DNA of 42,998 bases, taken from NCBI GenBank assembly GCA_000934665.2, contig KZ538878.1, positions 1-42,998 of the forward strand, in the 5' to 3' direction. The translations under genes were made by a program, and so were the position numbers. The DNA comes from Catajapyx aquilonaris (taxonomy: Eukaryota). The notes under the pieces were generated by a model, which worked only from the letters and a program-made list of their open reading frames with translations, was not told where the DNA came from and made no database searches. Of the stretch, positions 4,604 to 37,859 are shown piece by piece. The first letter of the stretch is position 1. Every line of letters starts with the position of its first letter.

Positions 4604-7600
4604 ATGGCCCTTAGGAACTGGCTGTTCGTCTCGAGGAAGAAGCAGCCGCTGCCCACCAAGCCTTCCAGCAACCAGCAGGAGACCAGCAAGAGCGAGTTCT
4701 ACTGGTGAGAATGGAGTTAATTACAATTAAACTATTGCAGCAATATGACACATGGACAGAGTACGTGGCATGTCGCTCGCTTTGGTTCACATCAAGTGCA
4801 TGCTTGCAATGCGTACATGTACGCATTGGAACGACATTTCACTTACATAGAACATGGGAATGGGTACGAAATTGGGTATAAAACCTGGACAAACACATGG
4901 ACAGACAATAAGTGGATAAACAACCAGACACATGGACAATCAGGCACACTAATGGACAAACACACAGACAGACAAATGGACATACGGACTGACACACAGA
5001 CATACAGACTGACACACAGACATACGGACAGACATACATATGGACAAGCAGGCAGACAAATGGACAAATGCACACGCAGACAAGTGGATAAACCGACAAA
5101 CAAAAGGACAAACAAGGAGACATACGAATGGACAAGCAAGCAAGAAGATCAATGGACAAACAGATAGACAGACAAAGGGACAAGCAAGCATACAGACCAA
5201 TGGACAAACAAACAAGCAGACGAATGAAGGATAAACAAGCAGACAGACAACTGGACAAACAGACAGACAAAATGGACAAACAAGCAGACGAATGAAGGGT
5301 AAGCAAGCAGACAGACCAATGGACAAGCAAACAAGCAGACGAACGGACAAGCAAACAAGCAGTCGAACGGACAAACAAACAAGCAGACAGACAGCTGAAC
5401 AGACAGACAGACAGACGAATGGACATACAAGCAGACGAATGCAGGATAAACAAGCAGACAGACAACTGGACAAACAGACAGACAGACGAATGGACATACA
5501 AGCCGACAAATGAAGGGTAGGCAAGCAGACAGACGAATAATGGGTAAACAAGCAAGCGGACAACTGGACAAACATACGGAGAGAGACAAATGGACAAACC
5601 CAGCACAGACAAGTGGATAAAGAGACGAACAAATGAATGGACGAACCGACAAACACACAAATGGACAAACATGGGGACAGACTTTGCCTTTTTTAAAACT
5701 ATTATGTGGCAGTGTTGGTTAGCGAGATGCAAGCTTGCGAATCGATGTGAAGTGGTCATGAAAAGTGGGTGTAAAACTTAATCTGGACGAACAAGCCAAC
5801 AGACAAACGAACGCACGAACAGTGCCTTCAGTTTATAATATAGAGATGCATGATGACAGTCAGTTTCCCAATCATATGTTTGTGAGTCTGCGGAGAACAT
5901 GGGTGGGTACGAACCTGGACAAACAAACAAAAACAATTGAACAAACAGACAGCCTTTTGTAATAATAAGATATGTCGCATGAATAGTTGGTTAGGGTACG
6001 TTGGGCTTGTAAAGTGTGTTTGGAATTAATGGTTCCTGTTTTCTCGCAGCAGCCACAACAGCTGGAGGCCGTTCGACCTGAGCGACAAGGAGTTTGTGCG
6101 TGTGTTGCTGTACCGCGAGTGCGATTCACGTGGCTGCAAGCTTCTGTATGACTCCAAGACCGTGCAGAAGGTGCCCCTCACGCCTGCGGAAGCCGTGGCG
6201 GCCAAGAGGGACTGCAAGGCCAATGGGAAGAAGAGCGGGACGGATCATTTCGTCGAGGTTAACAAGGATTTCGGGTACCAGGTGTGTACTTTTACGCAAA
6301 ATTGTACATCGCAATTAAACGATAGCTGTTTCGTGCAGCTGTAATGAATCATAGCTTGCTACATATGTAACTGATACATATTTTCTTCTTGTTGCTCCTC
6401 GACACATGAGTAAGTAACATATGTTGCCTGTGGCGGTTCTGCTTATTGCTTATGTTTTTAAAAAATCATTGCTTATCGCTCCTTACGTACGAAGAATTCG
6501 TGACAAACAATACCGCGCGAATGCCACAGATTGTAAGCTCACCAACTGTTTATTCTGTTTACATGTAAATACGTAATCCCAATCAATTTCAGTACTTGAA
6601 GGCGTCACAAGATGCGAAGATGATCAGCGAGCTTGTGTTCGGCTCTGTCGCCATGTCTTACAAGGGAACCACCTTGAAAGTACACACGTTGAAAAGTCCA
6701 CCGCAGGTCATGTGCAGCCGAATATTCCCAACGCCACGGACTGTTAAATGCGCACGGATCAGGTAAGAACATCGTAACATTTCCTAAACGTTCAGCTCAA
6801 TGTTGACACTGCAAAATAGGAAAAGTAATACCACACTTTTTTTCCCCCCATAATTAATAAGGAAACATGCATTTAATCACTCGTTTCTAATGTGTTCTTG
6901 GCCTAACGATATGTTTATAACAATCGCTATCTTATATTTCGCTCACAATATGTTATTAAGGAAACGCCAAGACAATGTTGTTGTTGTTGCAAAAATACCT
7001 CGTGTGTTATCCCATTGCGATAAGCTCTGCAGCTGTTTACTACACATTAGCATACAATTGAATGCGCAGTGTAATTACGTTTCTATTACAATCATAGCAT
7101 CACCTGAATCTGACTTTTTTTTTTCTCTCCCGCAGCGATCACAGTTTGGAAGACTCGATTGGAAGTTCTTTGAGCTCGATGAACGAGTACGAGATATCAA
7201 GAGTCAGCACTGCTGAGTCCGATATTGGTAAGTAGTTCGCTTGCAATTTTGCTTCATAAATTTAAAATTTATTATTTTGCAAATTTTTGGCCGCACATGA
7301 GCAATTCGCTCAGCGATAAAACTAATTGTTTGGTGGGACTTTTCACTCCCAAACAATTGGCTTCATTGATGGTTTAATGTTCGCGCTAACTTGACGTCTT
7401 CCTTTTTTTTAATTTTCCCCCCCCCTCAGCCCGCAGTTGTCCGATGGACGTTCCCGACCTTATGAGCAAGCAATCCCAACCGAACACTCGTTCAGAAGAG
7501 GACAGCGGATTCGGAGGGGACATCACCTCCCTTCCGTCGTGGATGTCGACCAGCAACAGCGGAAGCAGCATCGGGAGCTACTTCCAGAGTTTCGCCTCCT

Positions 7601-10600
7601 CAATTGGCAACTCCTCTTCCAATCCCGGTGAGTCGATCCAACTTATTCGGTCGTACAGCATATGTCGTTATTTTTATTCCCAGCTGTTCTCAATAGGTTA
7701 ATTCAAGAAGCAGGTGTCGTTACACCTCGTCACGGCTCTTATCTGTACTGTACTACTGCTGATATGAATTGTACTAAGAGAGCTACTTGAACTAAACAGT
7801 GTGCGTAACGGTCGATACTAATTTTACAATGTAATATACACTGCATTAAAAATAATCACGTGACAAATATTATGTTAAAATAATTCCATGCAACATATCG
7901 GAGGATTTCGTGAAAGTAAATCGTGAAAGACTTGTTTATGTGATTTACTTATGAGAACAATACAGTGCAAGTCGAGATACACAGCATCGTACATTTGCTG
8001 GTATGTGCCAGACGTTACATTTTATAATTAGATTTTGGTCTTAGCGCCAAGGTGAGCCGTGATGGGAATAATAATAATCTGTATGAGGAGCAGGTGTAAG
8101 CTACGATCCTGCATTTAATGTGTGCGTACTTATGTTGTTATCGGACTAGGTCGTCGTATGGGTATAATTAGAGAGGAGGGTGATGGGCGTTCGTTAAGTC
8201 TTAAATGTGTACGGCTAGTTCGTGAGTGTAAGTTTAGATAAGAAATTGCGTGCCCGGATAATGATAAGTTGCAATTAAAATCAAACAGATCTTTGAACTT
8301 CTTTTTCAAATTGAAACGCCATCAGAACTTGCCGCATTAAAGTCGTTACGTTTTACTTTTTGCATGACATTAAAAGTGGCTGGTTCTTGAGTGTATTTAT
8401 ATCAACAAATTGTGTCGGGATATGATACGTTGCGATTAACAACAATCGTTACAAACAGAAAATTTTGAACTGTTTCGCTTGAAATTAATTGATACTTTGC
8501 GATTAACAACAATCGTTACGTTGAGCGGATTATACTTTGAAAATGAAGCTGTCGGAACCTGCTGCATTATTTGCATGACTTTGCGTCGGTGACAGGGAGC
8601 TGTTGGGTAATTATTCTGATTGACATGTCACGTGCTTACCAAAATATATTCTTTTTCATTCCTGCTAATAATGTACCTGACAAGTCAGGTGGTCTGTTTT
8701 ATAATTAGACTAAATGGAAGGAAGGAAGGGGGAGGGAGGAAATGATGGCCGGGTGGGAGGGGTGGAATAGTTTTTAAGTCACATGAGTGTGTGTAGTCAC
8801 AAGGTTCACAGCTCATGTGCCTTTTGCAGCTGTGTTGCCAAGTTGGATCCCTGCCAAGACTAACTTTTTTTTTTCCCGTCAAAGGCCGGCCCCTGCAGTG
8901 TTATGTGCATGCGTTGCACCGTTGCCAACAAAACTTATCTCACAACTTTCTCCTTCACGGAAAGTCTGATGACTTGGCCATTAACTCGGGGGGAAATAAA
9001 TAAATTGTTACAGTTGCACTTGTTGTGCAATTTGACGTAAACATTGTTGAATTTCTGTAGTGTGCCCGAATTAAAAGACTTGACATGGGTAGGGTCAAAA
9101 GTAATGTGACATTTTAACGAGCGATGTTCACAGTTACGCAACATGACTTTTTGAATGTCAGGCGGATGATTGATACGTTTTATTTTCACTTCTACTCTGA
9201 GCTACACTTATTCTTCAAGTCTGCAGTTCAAATTTTTAATTAATTAATTAATTCATCATCATCACGGCGTTTCCCAAAAAAGCGGATATCGAGGAGGTCC
9301 TCAATATTATTTAACCAATAGTAAATAATCAAATTAATTTTAGTATTGATTAATTAAATAATTGTCAATTGAGTGTATGTAAATTCTGACATCAAATGGT
9401 CTGTAAATCACAACAAAGGATATTAGAAACATTTAATATGGTTTGCAATGTTCATAATTGCGATTTGAGCAAAGGCGGATATCAATCAATCAATCAATAA
9501 TCGTAAATGATTTAAAATAATTTTAGTCCTGCAAAAATCCGCAAAGTGCGATGAATTTATTAGTTATTATTTTGCAGATTTTAAATACTTTTTGGTGCTG
9601 CTTATTGCGACTCGATTAGTATTACGCTGCTTACGGGGTACATGTCGGGATTAATATGACTTCAATTTAAAATTTTACGCAACTTTTCGGTACAGTCCAC
9701 GCTATTACAACTAGTGTTTTATGCGTTGTTTGTATGACTTGAGTAATGCTAACACTTTGATTCGCCAGCTTCCAACTCAGGCAGCCTGAACAGCCTGCAA
9801 CGTCGATGGATCCGCAACAAGACCACGTCGTTTGACTTCACTCCCCGTCGTGACTCGCTCACGTCGTCGTTAGGCGAGAAGAGTTGCCAGCAGCAGGCGA
9901 GGTCCAAGCTTGGCGTGGCAGTCCTCATCGACACGGAGTTTCTCTCAGAGGCGGAGAGACGGGATTTCACCCAGTTCACCTTCACGCACATGGCCATCAT
10001 CGACTCTATTCTGGCTCGACTGCAGGAGAACATCGAGAGGGCGTACCTCCATAAGCAGAGCTTTGTCCACTCGGTCTCGGAAGCTGTGGACGATCTGACC
10101 AAGTCGCTTCTGGACCTATACTCGGCTCCGAGGCTTCTCAACCCGGTGTGGCTGTGCATGATCAGCAGAGGAAACAGAAATAACGGACTTGCGGCTCACT
10201 TTTTGTCCGAGTTTGTAGCCCTGGTGGAACAGTACGACACGAAAGGGACGAACTTGTAAGTTGTTCGCACTATTTTAACTTGGTTCAATTTTTAACTTAC
10301 TGACTGATCGACAGCTTCATGAGCACTCTACTGACTGCGGTGCTGACACATCATCTTGCGTGGGTACCGACTGTTACGCCCAGCGGTACGACAGAACCAG
10401 GAAGCAATAACGGATCATGCAGTCAGCGGCACACTGTCGAATCTGTAAGTACCACATTATCTACGCTGGGAAATGGCTCATTTTGATTTCCGCCAACAGT
10501 TAGACGACCTCCATCGCAACCATCCGTACAACCCGCTCTGGGCGCAATTAGGCGACCTCCTCGGAGCGTTGGGACACCCGCGGAAAGTCGCTCGCACCGT

Positions 10601-12287
10601 GATCACAGGAAGAGCGGCCAATCTGCTCGACCGTTTTCTGTGGGTTCTCAGCTACTTTGTGCGGTGCAATCAAGTGACGGACAATCCGGAAGAACGACAT
10701 GTGCCTAACGATGAGGATAAGAAGCAGCGGTTACGGGGAGTTAGTGCGAATCGCGGCGGATTGTACCCGAGTCTGGAAGGGCTGGACTTGAGCGATGAGG
10801 AGGATCCGTCGTCCCGGGTCGCAAGGCTCTGTCGGGTCACTCCCGAAGTGTTATCATACCACGTCAGCAATGAACACTGGCACAGCGGGCCAGCAAGCAA
10901 TAAAGACATGTTTAACAAGCACGAGCAGACCAAGGGAATGTACCCGTCGTTAGCAGATTTGGATACGGAAGAGGCGGCGACGGAACTGAAACGGGTTGTT
11001 TTTACATTAGGCGACGACGATAAGGAAGATGTGCCGCAGAATGATTGGTCTAATAAGAACGGGATAAGTCGGATTGGGATTGAAATACCGGAGCCGCAAG
11101 TGGAAAAGTGCAGGGCCGTTGGACGTTCGGTGGCTGCCAGCAACGTCGTAACGGTGAAGGCTTCGTACGTTGATCTCGAGCCGGTCGAGAGCATTAAAGA
11201 CACTAATTTGTACTTGCGGGATTACAACAGCGTGCGGTTTGGTAGCCCGTTAGCAAAAGTGTTGCCATCCGATGACAGCTGGAATCAAGGGCCACGTGAA
11301 GATGTGAGCCCTCGGAGCGTTAATGCTTCGAAATTGTTATTCGACGACTCCGAACATTGCACTGGATTGTTGTCTAAGTACATTCCGGTTCCTATGCCCA
11401 GATCTGTACCGGTTAGCGAATCACCAGCCCCAGCGAACCACGTCTCGTCGCTAACCAATGCCTGCCGATTGTTATCTGTTCCAAGCGGGTGCTTCAGAAC
11501 TTGTCTGGAATCAAGCGGGTCAAAGTGCAGCAGCTTCAGAGGTCAATCCGAATCCAAGGCTGAACCGAGCCGCAGTTCCTCTTCGGGCGACCTCAAGTAC
11601 AAGTATGGGTCCACTCACTTCGGAGCCACACTGGACCATTACAATTCAGACCTCATCCTCCATGGATTCATATCCAACGAGGACTCAACCTCAATATTCA
11701 ACTCATCGTGGGCCCAACGGCTTCAGCGGGATCTTGCATTGGCAACTCAGCAATCGGTTCTGGACGAGGATATCGACGGAGCTGTCTGCATAATCGCAAA
11801 AACCGACACCTGGTAATTCATATCCGTTAACGTTAACTTTCCCAAATTTAACCGCTCAATGTTACAGGGAGGTACAGCTGGTTTCGAGCCATGCGTTTGC
11901 AGTGGACAAGCCTGGGACATTGGGAATACAAGTCGGTATGTCCCATCTGGTCGCGAACATACTGGAGTCCGTACTCAACCTATGGAAATTGAGCGTTCCT
12001 CCCGATTTCGTAAGTACCCGATGCCGTTTAATTGTTTAAAAAAATAACGCAATTTGTCAAAAAAAAAATTCCAGTGCCTGGTGTATCTGGAGGACCGCCT
12101 GCAGGAGCTGTACTTGCGGAGTGAAGCTTTGGCGCAATATCTGCTTAATACGCCATCGCCACATTGTAATATGGACCAGGTGACTTCCACGTTTGGTATC
12201 GAAGTGAATGACGTCCCGCTTTTGATGGCGGTCGCATCGATACACACGCCGAAGGTCACCCAAATGTACGGACTCAGCTTCCGGTGA
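4604..12287 (+). CDS. FNIP: Folliculin-interacting protein (FNIP1/2 family), 10 coding exons, ~1025 aa
   Basis: Exons 4604-4704, 6050-6281, 6593-6762, 7136-7227, 7430-7627, 9769-10255, 10315-10444, 10500-11812, 11868-12009, 12075-12287; all GT-AG, phases consistent, total 3078 nt. Family motifs: VRVLLYRECDSRG..LLYDS, ELVFGSVAMSYKGTTLKVH, LLTAVLTHHLAWVPTV, HPYNPLWAQLGDL, LEDRLQELY. Confidence 0.93.
4885..5670. repeat. Degenerate GACA/GGACAAAC-rich satellite in FNIP intron 1
   Basis: ~800 bp of CAGA/GACA/CAAA/CAAG tetramer variants; produces spurious long C/L/S/V-rich ORFs on the minus strand. Confidence 0.9.
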
Positions 12288-16106: not shown

Positions 16107-17487
16107 TTACCAGGCGGGAGCTTCCCGTTCGTACATGAGAATGAGGTTTGGGCGCATGCCGGTCAGCCGCTCCTGGTCGACCTGGGTGAGAAAGAGGCCG
16201 ATCACGCTGAAGAGACGCAGCTCCAGCAGCCGCTTGCAGGCCGTGACCAGGGTGAAGATGCTGTCGCGTGAGGCGCGGGTGCAGGACAGGTCTAGGTACA
16301 GCAGGGACGGACAGTGGTCAGCGATGGCCTTGACGCAACGGGACTCCAGGTTGCGGGCGCCCATCAGGTCCAGCCGCTCCAGGCGCCGGGCGATCGGCTC
16401 GCCTGTTATGAACTTGATGAAGGAGTCGACCGTCAGCCGGATCATCCATCGCATGGCAAGGCAATCCAGTGTGGGCGCTGCGTTAATCCCAGTCAGCAAG
16501 CGCAAGTCGTTCGCTTTATTGCATCGCACCAGCAACCTCGTGTACTCCTGGTACTGCCCCCAGCCCAACAGGTGAACCCGCCTCGGCTGCCCGAAATCCC
16601 CCATGCAGTACGTACGCCTGTCCTCGTCAGTCAAGTACTGCAGAGTCACCTCCTTCAGACTTGTGCAGCTCTGGAGCGATGAGGGCGTGACGGGCCTTAC
16701 CTGGCTCTCCAGATGAAGGCTGATGGTCCTGAGCTTGGAGCAGACGGAGAAGATGTCCAGCGGGTGCCTGCATGTCCGTGGAAGTAACTGGATCTCCATT
16801 TTGAGCGACTTCAGGTTGCTGCAGTGGCGCGCAATCATGTCAAGGGTACGCTGGTACAGGGTGGTGATCGACCCAAGTTCCAGCACCTCCAGTTGGCTAC
16901 AGGTTTTGGCAACGGCAATCAGAACTTGGTCCGCACCTGCTGTCCACTTCGACATCTCCAGGCGCCTCAGCATGGGCATACCGGACACCATCACCACAGC
17001 CACATGAGCCGACATCTCTGTGCCATCAAGTTTCACCACCTTCCAGAGAGTGCAGTCACTGGCAAGCTTGCGCCATTCCTTGCACACAAACGGGAGGATG
17101 GACAGCTTATCTTTTTGGGACAGGTAGTCCAATACCTTCAGCTTCAGTTCGACTGGTAGCGAGGCCCAACACGGCACGGAGACTGCAACCTGAATCGAAC
17201 CGGATTAGCTTAAGAAGTGGACATGTACGGATGCGACTTGCCTCTCCGCTGGAGGTAGAATCTGACTGTCCGCTGGATGTAGAATCCGACAGTCCGCTGG
17301 AGGTAGAATCCATCTGTCCGCTGGATGTAGAATCCAACTGTCCACTGGAGGTAGAATCCAACAGTCCGCTGGAGTTAGAATCATCCGAATCTGTCCAGGC
17401 ATCAGAAATGTCATCATCGTCACACAATCCGGGTAAGTCAACGACAGGAGACGACAACTTCAGTTTCTTTGAAGGCACCTCCATCAT
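16107..17487 (-). CDS. F-box/leucine-rich-repeat protein (FBXL-like) with Ser/Asp-rich repetitive N-terminus, ~442 aa
   Basis: Exon 17487-17242 joins exon 17189-16107 in phase 0 across a 52-nt GC-AG intron. F-box motif WASLPVELKLKVLDYL...VCKEWRKLA..TLWKVV is followed by LRR-like units (CSQLEVLEL, CSNLKSLKM, CPSLLYLDLS, CKRLLELRL). Confidence 0.85.
17190..17241 (-). other. Non-canonical GC-AG intron, 52 nt
   Basis: Donor GAG|GCAAGT, branch-like GCTAAT, acceptor TTCAG|; removal fuses the two overlapping ORFs in frame. Confidence 0.75.
17242..17382 (-). repeat. Coding 24-bp tandem repeat, 6 units of DS(T/N)SSGxx
   Basis: DSNSSGLL DSTSSGQL DSTSSGQM DSTSSGLS DSTSSGQS DSTSSGE. Confidence 0.9.
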
Positions 17488-19016: not shown

Positions 19017-20784
19017 TTATTTGCAACCTCCCACAAGGCATATTACATCATAAGGGGGGGAGGGGTTGTATGTAGTAATAATAATAATAATTGTTTATTA
19101 TTATTACTACTACATACATACTAGGCAACATTTGCGAAAAGGCCATGATTGTATGTATTAATTACTATGTAATAATTATTAATAATAATCTGGTGTTTCC
19201 ATAGCTTGGTCTCGAGAGTGTCGAGCAACTGAAGGTGGCGATGGGAGCGAGAGATGCGGCTCCTCCGTCCGCACCAGTCCAGTTGTCCAGCCAGAGTAGT
19301 GCAGCCGCATCTCAGAAGCGGCCAAGGGAAGAAGACCCACCGCCGGCCGCCACCAACACACCTCCTACAACAGAGGCATTGCCGCAAAACGAGGACAACC
19401 CGGACGAAGAGGACACCGAAATGGTCTACACGGACTCATCCACCTTTCTGAAGGTATATCCTTTGCTTATTTTGATAAAAGCAAGTACTGATTCCGACTT
19501 GTACGCAGGGTACGCAATCGTCGAACCCACACAACGACTACTGCCAGCATTTCGTGGACACAGGCCAGCGTCCGCAGAACTTCATCCGGGACGTGGGCTT
19601 GGCAGACAGGTTTGAGGAGTATCCGAAGCTACGAGAGCTGATTCGGCTGAAGGACGACCTGATCCAGAAGACCGCGACGCCTCCCATGTACCTGAAGTGC
19701 GACCTCAGGTCATTCGACTTCAAGGAGATGAGGACAAAGTTCGACGTTATACTAGTCGAGCCGCCTTTAGAGGAATACCAGAGGAGCATGGGGGTCACCA
19801 ACGTCGACTTCTGGTCATGGGAACAGGTTCGTCCGCTAATAGTTCAGATGTTGTCTACAAGTTGAATCTAGTCAACACAAGGACAAAGTCACGCCTAGCC
19901 AACTCTATGATTTGTAGGGACAAAGTCACGCCAAGCCAATTCTACCTATGATAAAATTTGTTGTCATGTCCGTGGCACAAAAAACAATGATTGTTGTTCA
20001 TTCCCGCCACAATTATTTCATGAACGTGTGCGATTCCAGATAATGCAGCTGGACATTGCGGAAGTGGCTGCCCCCCGCAGCTTCCTTTTCCTGTGGTGCG
20101 GCTCGTCTGATGGGCTTGACCTGGGTCGCCAGTGCCTCCGGAAGTGGGGGTTCAGAAGATGCGAGGACATCTGCTGGATCCGCACCAATATCCGGAACCC
20201 GACGCACTCCAAGAATCTGGAGCCAAGAGCCGTGTTCCAGCGCACAAAAGAGCACTGCCTGATGGGGATTAAGGGAACAGTCCGACGATCCACCGACGGG
20301 GACTTCATACACGCAAACGTGGACATTGATCTCATAATCTCGGAGGATCCTGACTACGGATCGCTCGACAAACCCGTCGAGATATTCCACATCATCGAGC
20401 ACTTCTGCCTGGGACGAAGGAGGTATCGTTGAATTTGGAATTCCATATGCTTCAGTTGCCCTCACGTTCCTTTTCTCCAGACTCCATGTGTTTGGGCGTG
20501 ACAGTACGATCCGCCCTGGTTGGCTGACCATCGGCCCTGCGCTGACCAACTCCAACTTCAAGGTGGAGTCGTATGCTGCCAATTTCACTGGAGGCACGCA
20601 GCTGACCACAGGCTGCACGGAGCGGATCGAGGCTCTCCGGCCAAAGTCTCCCCCGCCCAAAGGAAAAGGTGGTGGCGGACGAGGCGGCGGAGGACGAGGT
20701 GGTGGTGGCGGAGCAGGCGGAGGTGGCGGCGGAGGGGCTTCCAGGGGTGGCTTCGCTAGGGGACGAGGCGGAAGAGGACGCTAA
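18639..20784 (+). CDS. METTL14: m6A methyltransferase non-catalytic subunit METTL14, 5 exons, ~439 aa
   Basis: Exons 18639-18704, 19205-19453, 19509-19826, 20040-20422, 20481-20784 (1320 nt). Motifs [40 protein letters not shown], pseudo-catalytic [33 protein letters not shown]-terminal RGG tail. Confidence 0.97.
18952..19016. repeat. (AAT)n microsatellite in METTL14 intron 1
   Basis: About 21 perfect AAT units. Confidence 0.95.
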
Positions 20785-26810: not shown

Positions 26811-26896
26811 TCACATCTGGAACACCTGACCTGCGTGTTTGATGTCCGAGTCCGACAAGAGGCGGTACCTTCCAACCCTTCGTTCCGCTGATTCAA
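26811..26896 (-). CDS. PTEN: Candidate distal alternative last coding exon of PTEN (VESAERRVGRYRLLSDSDIKHAGQVFQM*)
   Basis: A strong acceptor CTCTTCCCCCTTTCACCAG| matches the phase-1 donor TCAG|GTGAGT at 32108. About 5.5 kb of U-rich UTR-like sequence follows, with minus-strand AATAAA at 21278-21283. Confidence 0.55.
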
Positions 26897-27391
26897 CTGG
26901 TGAAAGGGGGAAGAGGAGGACAGGAATACACCAAAAATCAGTCACGTCTCTTTTCTCAATAGTGTGTAAATTTTGACTGGCACTTTTTTTTTTTCCACTC
27001 AATTTGAAAAAAACTTTCATACTTGCTAGCGCCCCCGTTCTAAGGTCTGCAAAATGAGGAATATGTCCCGCATGGCCACACAATAGCATCACTAGTGTCA
27101 CGGAAAAAAATGAGTATTTATAAAAACTCGGCCAGCGGAGAAAAATTTATTGGAGCTTTTAACAGGAAGTGGCATAACCCAATCGTTTTTTGGCGGCCAC
27201 CACAGTCAAAAAATTTCCAGCAAGTGTCTTACACACTCCAACAATGCCGTAAGTCGGATGTGATTTCAAATAATTTTGCCAAACTTTCAAATGTACGTAC
27301 ACGTGAGTGTATATGAAACTTTCATTATCGTTAGCATAGAGTGAAAAATGCCTTACATTCCTCCCAATTAAATTTTAGTGCTTACACCTTA

Positions 27392-32099: not shown

Positions 32100-35261
<3,162 letters not shown>

Positions 35262-35984
35262 CCTCAGGCACTGCGCCACTGCTGGACCCTTCCCACCACT
35301 GCACACCCGCACCCTCCTATTCCCAACAGCCGCACCACCTTCCGCCGATGCCGCCTCTTCTCCACCACCCTGCAAACACAATAAAACTATGGTTACGTAC
35401 TCTCCCACAAACCCACCAACGCATGTACACTAATTGTTGTCGCCATGACACAAATGAATCGTTAACATTCAAGATGCCAATCCCATTACCTCCGTTTCTG
35501 CAGTAGACTTGCTTTTTTTTCCCCCAGGGGGAAGTACTGTGCGTACATACGCACGCAACCAATCTGTACGAAAATCAAGTTTCAAGTGTTGTTCAAAACT
35601 ATCCAGAGAGGTTATTTACTAAGGGTAGTCCGTGTAAGGTCCGTACACTGAGGTAGTCTGGGATAGTTCAAGGTTAGTCCAGGATAGTCCGAAGTAGTCT
35701 GGGATAGTCGAAGGGATAGTATGTGTAGTCCTTGTATAAGCAAAATTTGTAAGTGAATAACCCCTGGAACTCACCACCACTTCTTCAGCCTCGTTGTTGT
35801 TGTTGCAGTGGTTGTAGCTGAGGACTCTCGGCCATGGATGTCCCCTACCACTGCTTCCTCCGCCACTCCCGCCGCAGCCACCACCTCGCTCCTCCTCATC
35901 TGCCAGGTTGCCTGACTTGCCCGCCACCGGGTTGCTTCCAATGTCTGACACTGAATTGTTGTGGCACGAAAACCATGCGCCCAT
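35262..35984 (-). CDS. PTEN: Putative 106-aa in-frame N-terminal extension of PTEN (coding 35984-35775 plus 35369-35262), starting MGAWFSC
   Basis: The ORF from ATG 35984 runs 70 codons to a GTG|GTGAGT donor (phase 0). The TTTGCAG| acceptor at 35369 opens 36 stop-free codons in frame with ATG 35261. Confidence 0.7.
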
Positions 35985-37360
35985 AAAACGCTGTCAGGCC
36001 TGCGACCTCCAAGTGTTGGCCTCGCCACCACTGGCCGGCGAGACCGGCGGGGGAGGTGACCCCCCTTTTGTCTTTCTTGGGTGGTGGTGGTTGGCTTGTG
36101 GCACAGTGCGCGTAATGAAAGGGAGGCACAGAATCAAGGAGGTCGATGCCTCCTCTTCCTCCATCATCCAGGACCAGCAAGCTGTGGTTGGCAGGGTTTG
36201 AGTCACTTCAGGAGACGGGGGGGAGGTTGGGGGGGAATGACTTAGCTAATGCAAAGAGTTACGTACGAGTTATTCACACTCAGTCACTGGGTGAGGTCAT
36301 GGAGCCGCTGTCCTGGAAAATCAAAGCGACTCTAAGTACATGTAGCACTATTTACTTTTGCAACTTAATTTTAAAATAATTAAAATCACGCTGGAATACC
36401 GCCTCAATAATGTACTTCCAATTATCCGTGAGTCACCAAAACAAAGAAAAATAAATGCAAGTCCCAAAAAAATGTTAAATATGGCTTGCAAACAAAGAAA
36501 TATAACAGACTTTTGCCGGAAGACAAATTAAAAAATGCGTGGGAAGTTTCATTTTTTAAAATTAAACCTTATTTACAGTGGTGTACAAAACGTGCAATAG
36601 TTCATTAAAAACCTCCACTTTTACAGCATCCAGAACCATTTTTTGATTAAATCCATGTTTTCCGATTAGCCGGCAACACCTGCGTATTCATTAGCCTGAA
36701 TAATCAAGAGTACAGTGTACTTCAATATGCATAATTACACAAACAATGAGAGCAAATATTAAGCAAACACATTACTAACACTTCCACCAATCTTGTAATC
36801 ACCATTTGAACTTCAAAGGGGATTGAGAGCCCTCAAACTACTATTAAAACACTTAACACCCATGTAATTGGTGTTAAACACACTTCAAAAGTGATATGCC
36901 ACACAGTTGGTGGACGTATGCCAAGAGAAAAATTGAAGTCCCAAGATTATGTCAAAATCTCTCGATTACATAATATTCCGCTGGTTGTCATGCATGTTTC
37001 TCTCCCTCCCAGACATTGATAAGGTGCGGCTTAATAAACTTGATAATCACGCAACATTTCAGTTTCCCTCGAGATAATTTTTTTCAGCCGCCAAAGGTTT
37101 CGTGTTATTAATCAAAATAGCTCGTTCGCATTTAATTACCTCTTCTCTGAAGTGTCAATAAGAAATAACAGACAATAAAAAAATGAGGAGATGAGAATAA
37201 AAATAACGCTCTTCTAATTATTGCCCTCTGCAATTATTATGCAGCCTTACAAAATATCACTATTCTATACTCAGGGTTACATAGCAAACTGATAAGTAAT
37301 TAACATTTCCATCAGGATAATGTATCATTTTGTACAAACATTCTCCTCGTGTTTCACTGC

Positions 37361-37859
37361 CTACTATCCGATTTTTTAATATTGACCATTGTGTTTGACT
37401 CTTAAATAACTCCCAAGAAAATGGTCCAAAAAAATAGCATTATACACCCTCCCGACGCAGGTGAAAGGAAAGTTCCCCAGGCGGGGAACGAACCTGGGGC
37501 CTTTCACTCAGCAAGCCGAGACGTTACCATCTCGGCCACCACACCTCCCCTTTACAATATATCATTAGATTGACAAAGATTTGCACTATCCAGGGTTCAC
37601 AGGGGTAATATTTTGGCCTCCGAGAAGTGTCATAAAAAATTCATTTTGTGGCGTAACATCGGCAACTAGTCAAAAAATGACATCTTTCCGTGTTCTTCTA
37701 GCGATAAAAATTACACAATGAAAATAGGTAAACAACTTGCATATGTGTAGATTTAAACCAGCTTTCTCATGATGCAAAACGTTATTTTTTTTGGACCATT
37801 TTCCTGGGAGTTATGTAGAGTCAAACATAGGGGCCAATATTTAAAAATTGGATAGTAAG
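37361..37859. mobile_element. Diverged TIR element (~80-bp arms) with an internal tRNA-like segment
   Basis: TACTATCCGATTTTTTAATATTG...TGTTTGACTCT...ATAACTCCCAAGAAAATGGTCCAAAAAAATA is inverted at ~37780-37857. Confidence 0.75.
37470..37550 (-). mobile_element. tRNA-derived SINE head or tRNA-like fragment
   Basis: A box TGGCCGAGATGG and B box GGTTCGTTCCC on the minus strand; stems do not pair as a functional tRNA. Confidence 0.6.

Follow-up and report, generated by a model that had tools for sequence, protein, structure and literature searches.

The window analysed here covers 42,998 nucleotides (positions 1 to 42,998) of contig KZ538878.1 of the Catajapyx aquilonaris assembly (GCA_000934665.2), and it carries a gene for the phosphatase PTEN on its minus strand. 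On balance, we favour the view that this gene encodes a real and old AUG-initiated long isoform of PTEN, 575 residues in length, which would begin with MGAWFSC, be assembled by a phase-0 splice from 35775 to 35369 and be held at the membrane by lipid. Predicted long PTEN isoforms of many insects carry a similar head and, judging from this motif, the window most likely extends the insect-type isoform to an arthropod outside the sampled insects.

The extension opens with an ATG at 35984-35982, four codons downstream of an in-frame TGA (35996-35994). The start codon and the motif (Gly2, Ser6, Cys7) occupy 35964..35984 in the context CGTTTT-ATGG, and the first part of the extension (35775..35984, minus strand like all other parts of the gene) comprises 70 open codons, MGAWFSCHNNS...EAEEVV, which are rich in Gly, Ser, Asn and Glu and end at 35775, directly before a GTGAGT donor (35774-35769). 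A proposed intron of 405 bases (35370..35774, GTGAGT...TTTGCAG), put forward from sequence and site scores, would end at 35370 with the acceptor TTGTGTTTGCAG. The exon that begins at 35369 then supplies 36 stop-free codons (35262..35369; GGGEEAAS...AQCLR) in frame with the canonical start ATG 35261 (MANTISS...); each other frame of these 108 bases has a stop. The ATG, the upstream stop, the 70 codons, the GTGAGT and the 36 codons running into 35261 had all been listed in a first-pass annotation of this stretch, and we confirmed them to the letter.

We assessed how often such a frame would arise by chance. When the bases were shuffled (20,000 trials), both segments remained open in 1.6% of trials, with the right frame not yet required; the 36-codon part alone stayed open in 27%. 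Across the six frames of the window, MG..FSC is found a single time, at this very spot, with 0.003 (blockwise shuffles) to 0.014 (residue frequencies) occurrences expected, and the chance of finding G2, F5, S6 and C7 after one given AUG is 4e-6 to 9e-6.

Among the closest PTEN matches, P0007, P0008 (XP_015174985.1) and P0009 are longer at the N-terminus by about 90 residues, and MGICFSC stands at or close to their start. With the window's exon as its first row, a profile of this extension matched 42 proteins among the 8000 best-ranked candidates; 36 of these have Pfam records, all for PTEN-type domains, and the other six are short Logan fragments without a Pfam record. The 39 new matches comprise 28 with MG..FSC, two with MGICLSC or MGICCSC, and nine in which a different first exon precedes the same downstream extension. 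The species names seen are all hymenopteran: ants, bees, and vespid, chalcid, braconid and ampulicid wasps, with Vespula, Polistes and the sawfly Neodiprion among them. A HMMER search of 1.84 billion cluster representatives yielded 13 matches (10 at E <= 1e-10), which include the P0189-type fragments P0195 and P0196 and the more divergent P0200. Across 46 distinct extension sequences, the first seven positions are M (46), G (46), I, L or V (38, 5 and 3), C (45), F (44), S (46) and C (45). P0189 (XP_066994326.2, like P0008 an automatic RefSeq model) begins directly with MGLCFSC and falls outside a Hymenoptera clade supported at 99/98 in our tree; thus the motif-headed extension reaches at least one insect lineage beyond Hymenoptera. 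A conserved MGxxxSC start on arthropod PTEN, which the first-pass annotation had named as a check, is therefore present on insect PTEN extensions by both the profile and the HMMER searches, and the feature is not peculiar to this locus, as it is common to insects and not a one-off invention.

Not all insect models begin at the motif. In a census of 186 long PTEN-like proteins, a set that is biased by the search route and does not represent a frequency, five start at the motif, 49 carry it after a few residues, 109 have the canonical start only and 23 have other extensions. All four isoforms of the P0189 cluster and species start at MGLCFSC, and because of this the tethered form may be the main one in some lineages.

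Two of the HMMER matches show further peculiarities. The P0200 fragment retains an MGVCFSC head and an open frame and has lost the MANTIS start region, in place of which a His run is found (...HHHHHHCQGYKKMSNPIKG...); in this lineage a full N-terminus may depend on the upstream AUG alone. In the P0196 cluster, gene callers run on metagenome contigs have translated the in-frame TGA that precedes the insect MGLCFSC with Trp (...TVQWFFMG...), and the frame is falsely long as a result; the DNA of the insect loci described next (L001-L010) shows a stop where these models have Trp.

A second metagenome scan recovered 11 loci of the P0208 type, ten of which (L001-L010) span the whole first coding exon. 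These ten represent six distinct DNA versions that encode an identical protein, and in all of them a single exon, not interrupted by an intron, holds both the extension and the canonical start. Among the six versions, the 53 codons of the extension have four variable sites and the 35 canonical codons have three, all at third codon positions and without indels, whereas substitutions number 48 in the 500 bases upstream and 81 in the intron, with eight and 176 gap columns, respectively. Because variation within the extension is confined to third positions and free of indels while the flanks have diverged, the pattern is that of purifying selection on the protein, as read from the DNA of this one insect lineage. 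The ATG of these loci stands in the context TTTTTT-ATGGGG, three codons past an in-frame TGA; in the window the distance is four codons and the context is CGTTTT-ATGGGC. The canonical start has the context AGG-ATGGC in the insect loci and the window alike. Two start contexts thus appear to be conserved across lineages, the weak UUUU-AUG-GG that opens the acylation-type head and the strong AGG-AUG-GC of the canonical start.

By its sequence, the window gene is PTEN and not TPTE, a voltage-sensing phosphatase (VSP), tensin or auxilin. One catalytic exon matched 505 of the 506 scored candidates at E <= 1e-10, the named ones being PTEN (best identities 79-81%), and this exon (34573-34746) aligned end to end with solved PTEN structures (1d5r and 7juk; E = 2e-25), which bears out the claim of gene identity made in the first-pass annotation. 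The same catalytic exon scored far lower against voltage-sensing phosphatases, TPTE2 and auxilin, and the next-best solved relatives are TPTE/TPIP and VSP (E = 7e-12 to 4e-7). Translated over the exon boundaries given by RNA contigs, the spliced product has 575 amino acids, of which 469 follow from the canonical start, and it contains the catalytic P-loop signature HCKAGKGR (HCKAGKGRTG) expected of PTEN within VHCKAGKGRTGVM. Pfam scans were made exon by exon, and single exons are too short for them to be useful; on the exon after 34573-34746, DSPc reached a sub-threshold 18.3 bits (cut-off 33.5). In a maximum-likelihood tree of 18 rows, inferred from a full-length alignment that includes the C2 region after the phosphatase domain, the 13 insect-type rows together form the sister group of the window (support 92/87), and the arthropod PTEN clade that holds it (100/99) is split from the snail and fish rows, as expected of an orthologue of animal PTEN. 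The PTEN core of the window is 56-63% identical to every PTEN compared. The window reads as an arthropod that branches outside the sampled insects.

Transcription of the locus was followed in the one public sequencing run that was found (X1). This run is not recorded as RNA; it behaves as RNA, because its contigs skip eight PTEN coding introns and a leader intron, all of them GT..AG on the minus strand. A contig of 192 bases covers 35808-35999, including ATG 35984, with no mismatch; the AUG-bearing exon is therefore transcribed. Computed from bin depth and record lengths, the end of the coding contig falls near 35296, so that this contig reaches about 35 bases into the extension. GTGAGT agrees with the general donor consensus at every position. 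In a splice-site matrix built from nine confirmed introns of the locus, which is small and noisy, acceptor 35370 scores 7.9 and is the top acceptor in the scanned range (confirmed sites 5.4-12.0). Run X1 neither demonstrates nor contradicts the junction 35775>35369 that is proposed from the sequence.

The head has the features of a dual acylation signal. A Met-Gly start, a small residue at position 3, Ser6 and a nearby Cys form the pattern that undergoes N-myristoylation and then S-palmitoylation; N-myristoyltransferase needs Gly after Met and Ser6, and the PROSITE pattern PS00008 is G-{EDRKHPFYW}-x(2)-[STAGCN]-{P}. With G2, A3, S6, a C7 that is not Pro and no earlier Met (given the in-frame stop), MGAWFSC fits this rule on direct comparison with the pattern. 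Translation would start at AUG 35984 in the upstream exon, which the phase-0 splice 35775>35369 would join to the canonical-start exon; the initiator Met would be removed, Gly2 would be N-myristoylated by N-myristoyltransferase during translation, and Cys7 would then be S-palmitoylated by a palmitoyl transferase, as in SH4 heads. The phosphatase/C2 module would in this way be held at the membrane by a disordered tether some 100 residues long, independently of the reversible electrostatic binding of ordinary PTEN. We infer the junction in this species, the use of the AUG, both lipid modifications and membrane residence. The first-pass annotation had described the protein as constitutively membrane-anchored: its head is matched at the start of predicted insect PTEN extensions, while anchoring and lipidation are read from the motif.

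A number of observations weigh against the isoform as proposed, and several of them concern the strength of its link with insects. The window shares with insect long PTEN an in-frame extension before a MANTIS... start, an MG-x-x-FSC head and a variable tail that is acidic or rich in Gly; however, MGAWFSC is identical to the insect M-G-[ILV]-C-F-S-C at only five of seven positions, a short match that fails at positions 3 and 4. Trp stands at position 4 where 45 of the 46 insect sequences have Cys and, because of this replacement, Cys7 is the single candidate palmitoylation site left in the window. The block SASVTPLHVC.EEQRGPELG, which is common to Hymenoptera and P0189, is not recognisable in the window. 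Against a profile of the insect extensions built without the window, the window's frame reached only E = 5.2 and ranked 13th of 1436 frames; a BLASTP comparison of each extension part with the hymenopteran P0007 and P0008 returned nothing at the extension; and, with the head motif removed, 1151 of 2000 shuffles of the window extension scored as well as the real one. Because nothing beyond the motif is detectable, homology rests on five identical residues and on their position. A likeness between GGGEE...GGAA in part 2 of the window extension and P0007 was considered and rejected as low-complexity composition in both.

Other searches with the window's own exons gave a similar result. The 70-codon extension exon matched no Pfam family, an ESM Atlas search with its 70 residues gave no usable match, a homologue search among longer proteins with the exon at 35157-35369 returned nothing, and a first metagenome scan with the window's exon as query found no relative. 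The tail of the extension appears to be a fast-evolving, low-complexity tether; long Gly runs are found in the extensions of the sawfly models P0172 and P0216, as they are in the window. The exon layout also differs, as the window has the head and the next 63 codons in one exon, Hymenoptera have a separate small head exon (inferred from isoforms) and no intron interrupts the extension in L001-L010. Despite the short match, and judging from the sequences compared, we regard an accidental likeness as much less probable than common descent of the head or strong convergence upon it.

The remaining points against the isoform concern splicing and initiation. Run X1 has no contig that joins 35775 to 35369 and no cover at 35297-35807 (depth is 0 in 35396-35679), and donor 35774 scores 4.3 in our matrix (confirmed donors 3.9-7.4), which places it only fourth among the candidates; the three that score better sit in 35466-35546, where RNA depth is zero and the frame has already reached its stop. 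The context of AUG 35984 is poor (U at -3), and five AUGs precede it in the transcribed leader; one of these, AUG 36164 (A at -3, G at +4), begins a frame of 56 codons, in phase with the extension, whose stop lies 9 bases upstream of 35984. Given these upstream AUGs, the 56-codon frame and the U at -3, plain scanning disfavours the use of 35984, and it is less certain than the first-pass annotation had assumed that this AUG is readily used. Most hymenopteran models, moreover, begin five residues before MG (49 of the 54 motif-bearing proteins); if the first AUG is used in Hymenoptera, the Gly is not N-terminal and Gly2 chemistry is impossible there. That M-G never varies at this place speaks for a role of the second hymenopteran AUG.

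How ribosomes would reach the two PTEN starts depends on the leader. A non-coding leader exon (36267..36560, with an approximate 5' end) contains three short AUG frames (AUGs 36552, 36341 and 36300); RNA depth is 1.83 in 36248-36531 and 0.39 in 36532-36815, and cover reaches upstream to about 36530. It is followed by a leader intron of 85 bases (36182..36266, GTACGT...CACAG) that is removed in RNA, the joint 36181/36267 (ends CT..AC) being seen in one contig at depth 2.5 with 30 bases on the shorter side. An upstream reading frame of 57 codons (35994..36167, MMEEEEASTS...), or 56 when counted from its second AUG, 36164, whose context is strong, then runs in the same phase as the extension to the TGA at 35996-35994. 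Between 35984 and 35261 there are three out-of-frame AUGs in the window, and there are two or three in the insect loci; leaky scanning through the extension to the canonical AUG, for which we looked in the form of AUG depletion, found no support, as out-of-frame AUGs are present. Use of both starts is accounted for neither by scanning to the first AUG nor by simple leaky scanning. The hymenopteran isoforms suggest that the choice may be made by alternative first exons or transcription starts, and the 57-codon upstream frame may govern how ribosomes reach either of them.

An out-of-frame ATG lies 8 bases past the extension ATG both in the window (35976, minus strand) and in insect locus L001 (2509). 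It is formed by codons 3 and 4, GCA TGG in the window and TTA TGC in the insect, and its presence in both may be coincidental, given that the codon at position 4 is one for Cys or Trp.

Three other explanations have to be set beside a lipid-held long isoform. The frame could be an accident of a G-rich 5' leader, that is, a non-functional or regulatory upstream frame that runs into the PTEN start and resembles the insect head by chance. The many AUGs of the leader, including the 57-codon frame, the poor context of AUG 35984, the ease with which G-rich sequence stays open (27% of shuffles for the 36-codon part) and the absence of likeness to the insect extensions beyond the motif would all agree with this; however, we regard it as very unlikely, given that the two parts are jointly open in 1.6% of shuffles before the right frame is required, that G2, F5, S6 and C7 are so rarely expected by chance (4e-6 to 9e-6 per AUG, 0.003-0.014 occurrences of the motif per window), that the motif is placed exactly as in insect PTEN genes and that the extension of an insect lineage evolves as coding sequence. 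It could also be that the exon is transcribed, and its AUG perhaps used, while splicing takes another course (another donor, intron retention or a non-PTEN transcript) and canonical PTEN is made from another first exon. Retention of the intron would give a separate product of 121 residues with its stop at 35619-35621; no contig bridges the proposed junction, cover ending at 35808, 33 bases short of the donor; three donors outscore 35774; and hymenopteran genes use alternative first exons. Against this stand the full consensus of GTGAGT, the position of the rival donors (35466-35546) at zero depth and past the frame's stop, the rank of acceptor 35370 as the best in range, and the coding RNA contig, which runs about 35 bases upstream of ATG 35261. 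Hymenopteran genes, in addition, have an intron about 35-38 codons before the canonical Met, as found in the retained-intron fragments P0154 and P0168, and the proposed intron of the window lies at 36. Splicing of another kind is in our judgement unlikely.

The isoform may, alternatively, be real and its head something other than a plasma-membrane lipid anchor: a Cys-rich targeting or regulatory signal that serves another compartment, a site of palmitoylation only, or a signal for binding or degradation. The five residues before MG in most hymenopteran models would prevent N-myristoylation should translation begin at the first AUG, the residues invariant in insects include two Cys, and mammalian long forms of PTEN are located at mitochondria, at nucleoli or outside the cell (in part after PMC5376652 and PMC8126949). 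We consider such a head improbable, however, because the Gly after Met and Ser6 are invariant in 46 of 46 distinct sequences, and because the P0189, P0008 and window proteins start at MG, with a stop just upstream in the window and in the insect loci.

The lipid-held long isoform, which we prefer to these alternatives, invites comparison with several known systems. The mammalian extended forms of PTEN are not known to carry a lipidation motif and are unrelated to it in sequence. Mammalian PTEN-L/alpha, beta and epsilon resemble the proposed isoform in having in-frame N-terminal residues translated from the leader and an altered localisation; they are CUG- and AUU-initiated (passages of PMC5376652), whereas the extension of the window begins with an AUG, four codons after a stop, and has an acylation-type motif and a putative internal intron. 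The SH4 heads of Src-family kinases and G-alpha share Met-Gly, a small residue at position 3, Ser6 and a nearby Cys; they usually have Cys at position 3, whereas the window has only Cys7 and insects have Cys4 and Cys7, and acylation of PTEN is predicted from the motif. TPTE/TPIP and Ci-VSP likewise have PTEN-like catalytic modules that are permanently membrane-held, but they are separate genes and are anchored by a transmembrane voltage sensor, in contrast to the putative lipid anchor on a PTEN isoform in the window. In engineered Myr-PTEN, PTEN is fused to a myristoylation signal that forces membrane residence; that construct is artificial, whereas the signal of the window would be natural and conserved.

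No description of a natural acylated PTEN isoform turned up in full-text searches, the scope of which left out about 1.7 million PubMed Central articles and the subscription journals. The cloning of honey bee PTEN reported three splice variants, with the catalytic motif at residues 132-137, and the words 'myristoyl' and 'N-terminal' occur 0 times each in the passages searched of that paper (PMC3136494). The isoform is probably already present in public protein sets in the form of automatic insect models, undescribed.

Downstream of the extension, the canonical PTEN start exon (35156..35261, to DGFDLDLT) has its ATG in the context GAGG-ATGG, with A at -3 and G at +4, and is joined to the next exon at 34951/35156. 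Eight further PTEN coding exons lie in 32100..34951, with seven more CT..AC joints in run X1: 34822-34951, 34573-34747, 34034-34141, 33309-33450, 33051-33214, 32713-32957, 32436-32556 and 32100-32318, the last of which includes the stop. The short form ends WESGE-stop, and its frame reads into a perfect GTGAGT donor (32100-32105, minus strand) that overlaps the stop at 32100. A splice from this donor to an acceptor at 26897, about 5.2 kb downstream, would give WES-V-ESAERRVGRYRLLSDSDIKHAGQVFQM. C-termini similar to V-ESAERRVGRYRLLSDSDIKHAGQVFQM are found in the insect isoforms P0201 and P0002, and the segment at 26811..26896 (minus strand; V-ESAERRVGRYRLLSDSDIKHAGQVFQM-stop), a candidate from sequence that lies outside the stretch covered by RNA mapping, is a probable alternative last coding exon.

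Elsewhere in the window, neighbouring genes encode a folliculin-interacting protein (10449-11816, plus strand; FNIP_M 1.8e-22, FNIP_C 1.2e-12), an F-box protein (16107-17204, minus strand; 1.4e-9) and an MT-A70 methyltransferase-family exon (19911-20432, plus strand; 5.9e-41) that is followed by a Gly/Arg-rich tail. Upstream of PTEN, the segment at 37384-37667 has a summed contig depth of 315 in run X1 with many loose ends, and is probably a repeated or mobile element. A long simple repeat coding for Cys, Leu, Ser and Val, open in several frames on both strands, occupies 4839-5777 (AT skew is 0.54 in 5001-6000) and is likely to be a microsatellite-like array.

PTEN works only at membranes, and its residence time there is a main control point of PI3K/insulin signalling; in vertebrates this residence is transient and regulated. 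If the long isoform is what we propose, a PTEN that is naturally fixed by lipid would be a different solution to membrane residence from that of vertebrates. A wider proposal, which we offer tentatively and hold to be doubtful, is that lipid-anchored PTEN is old and general in insects and their crustacean-grade relatives, and that the two conserved start contexts, together with alternative first exons, set the ratio of tethered to soluble enzyme and, with it, how strongly insulin/PI3K signalling is braked at its basal level. If conserved from Hymenoptera to an arthropod beyond the sampled insects, the isoform would belong to the basic toolkit of growth, moulting and caste determination.

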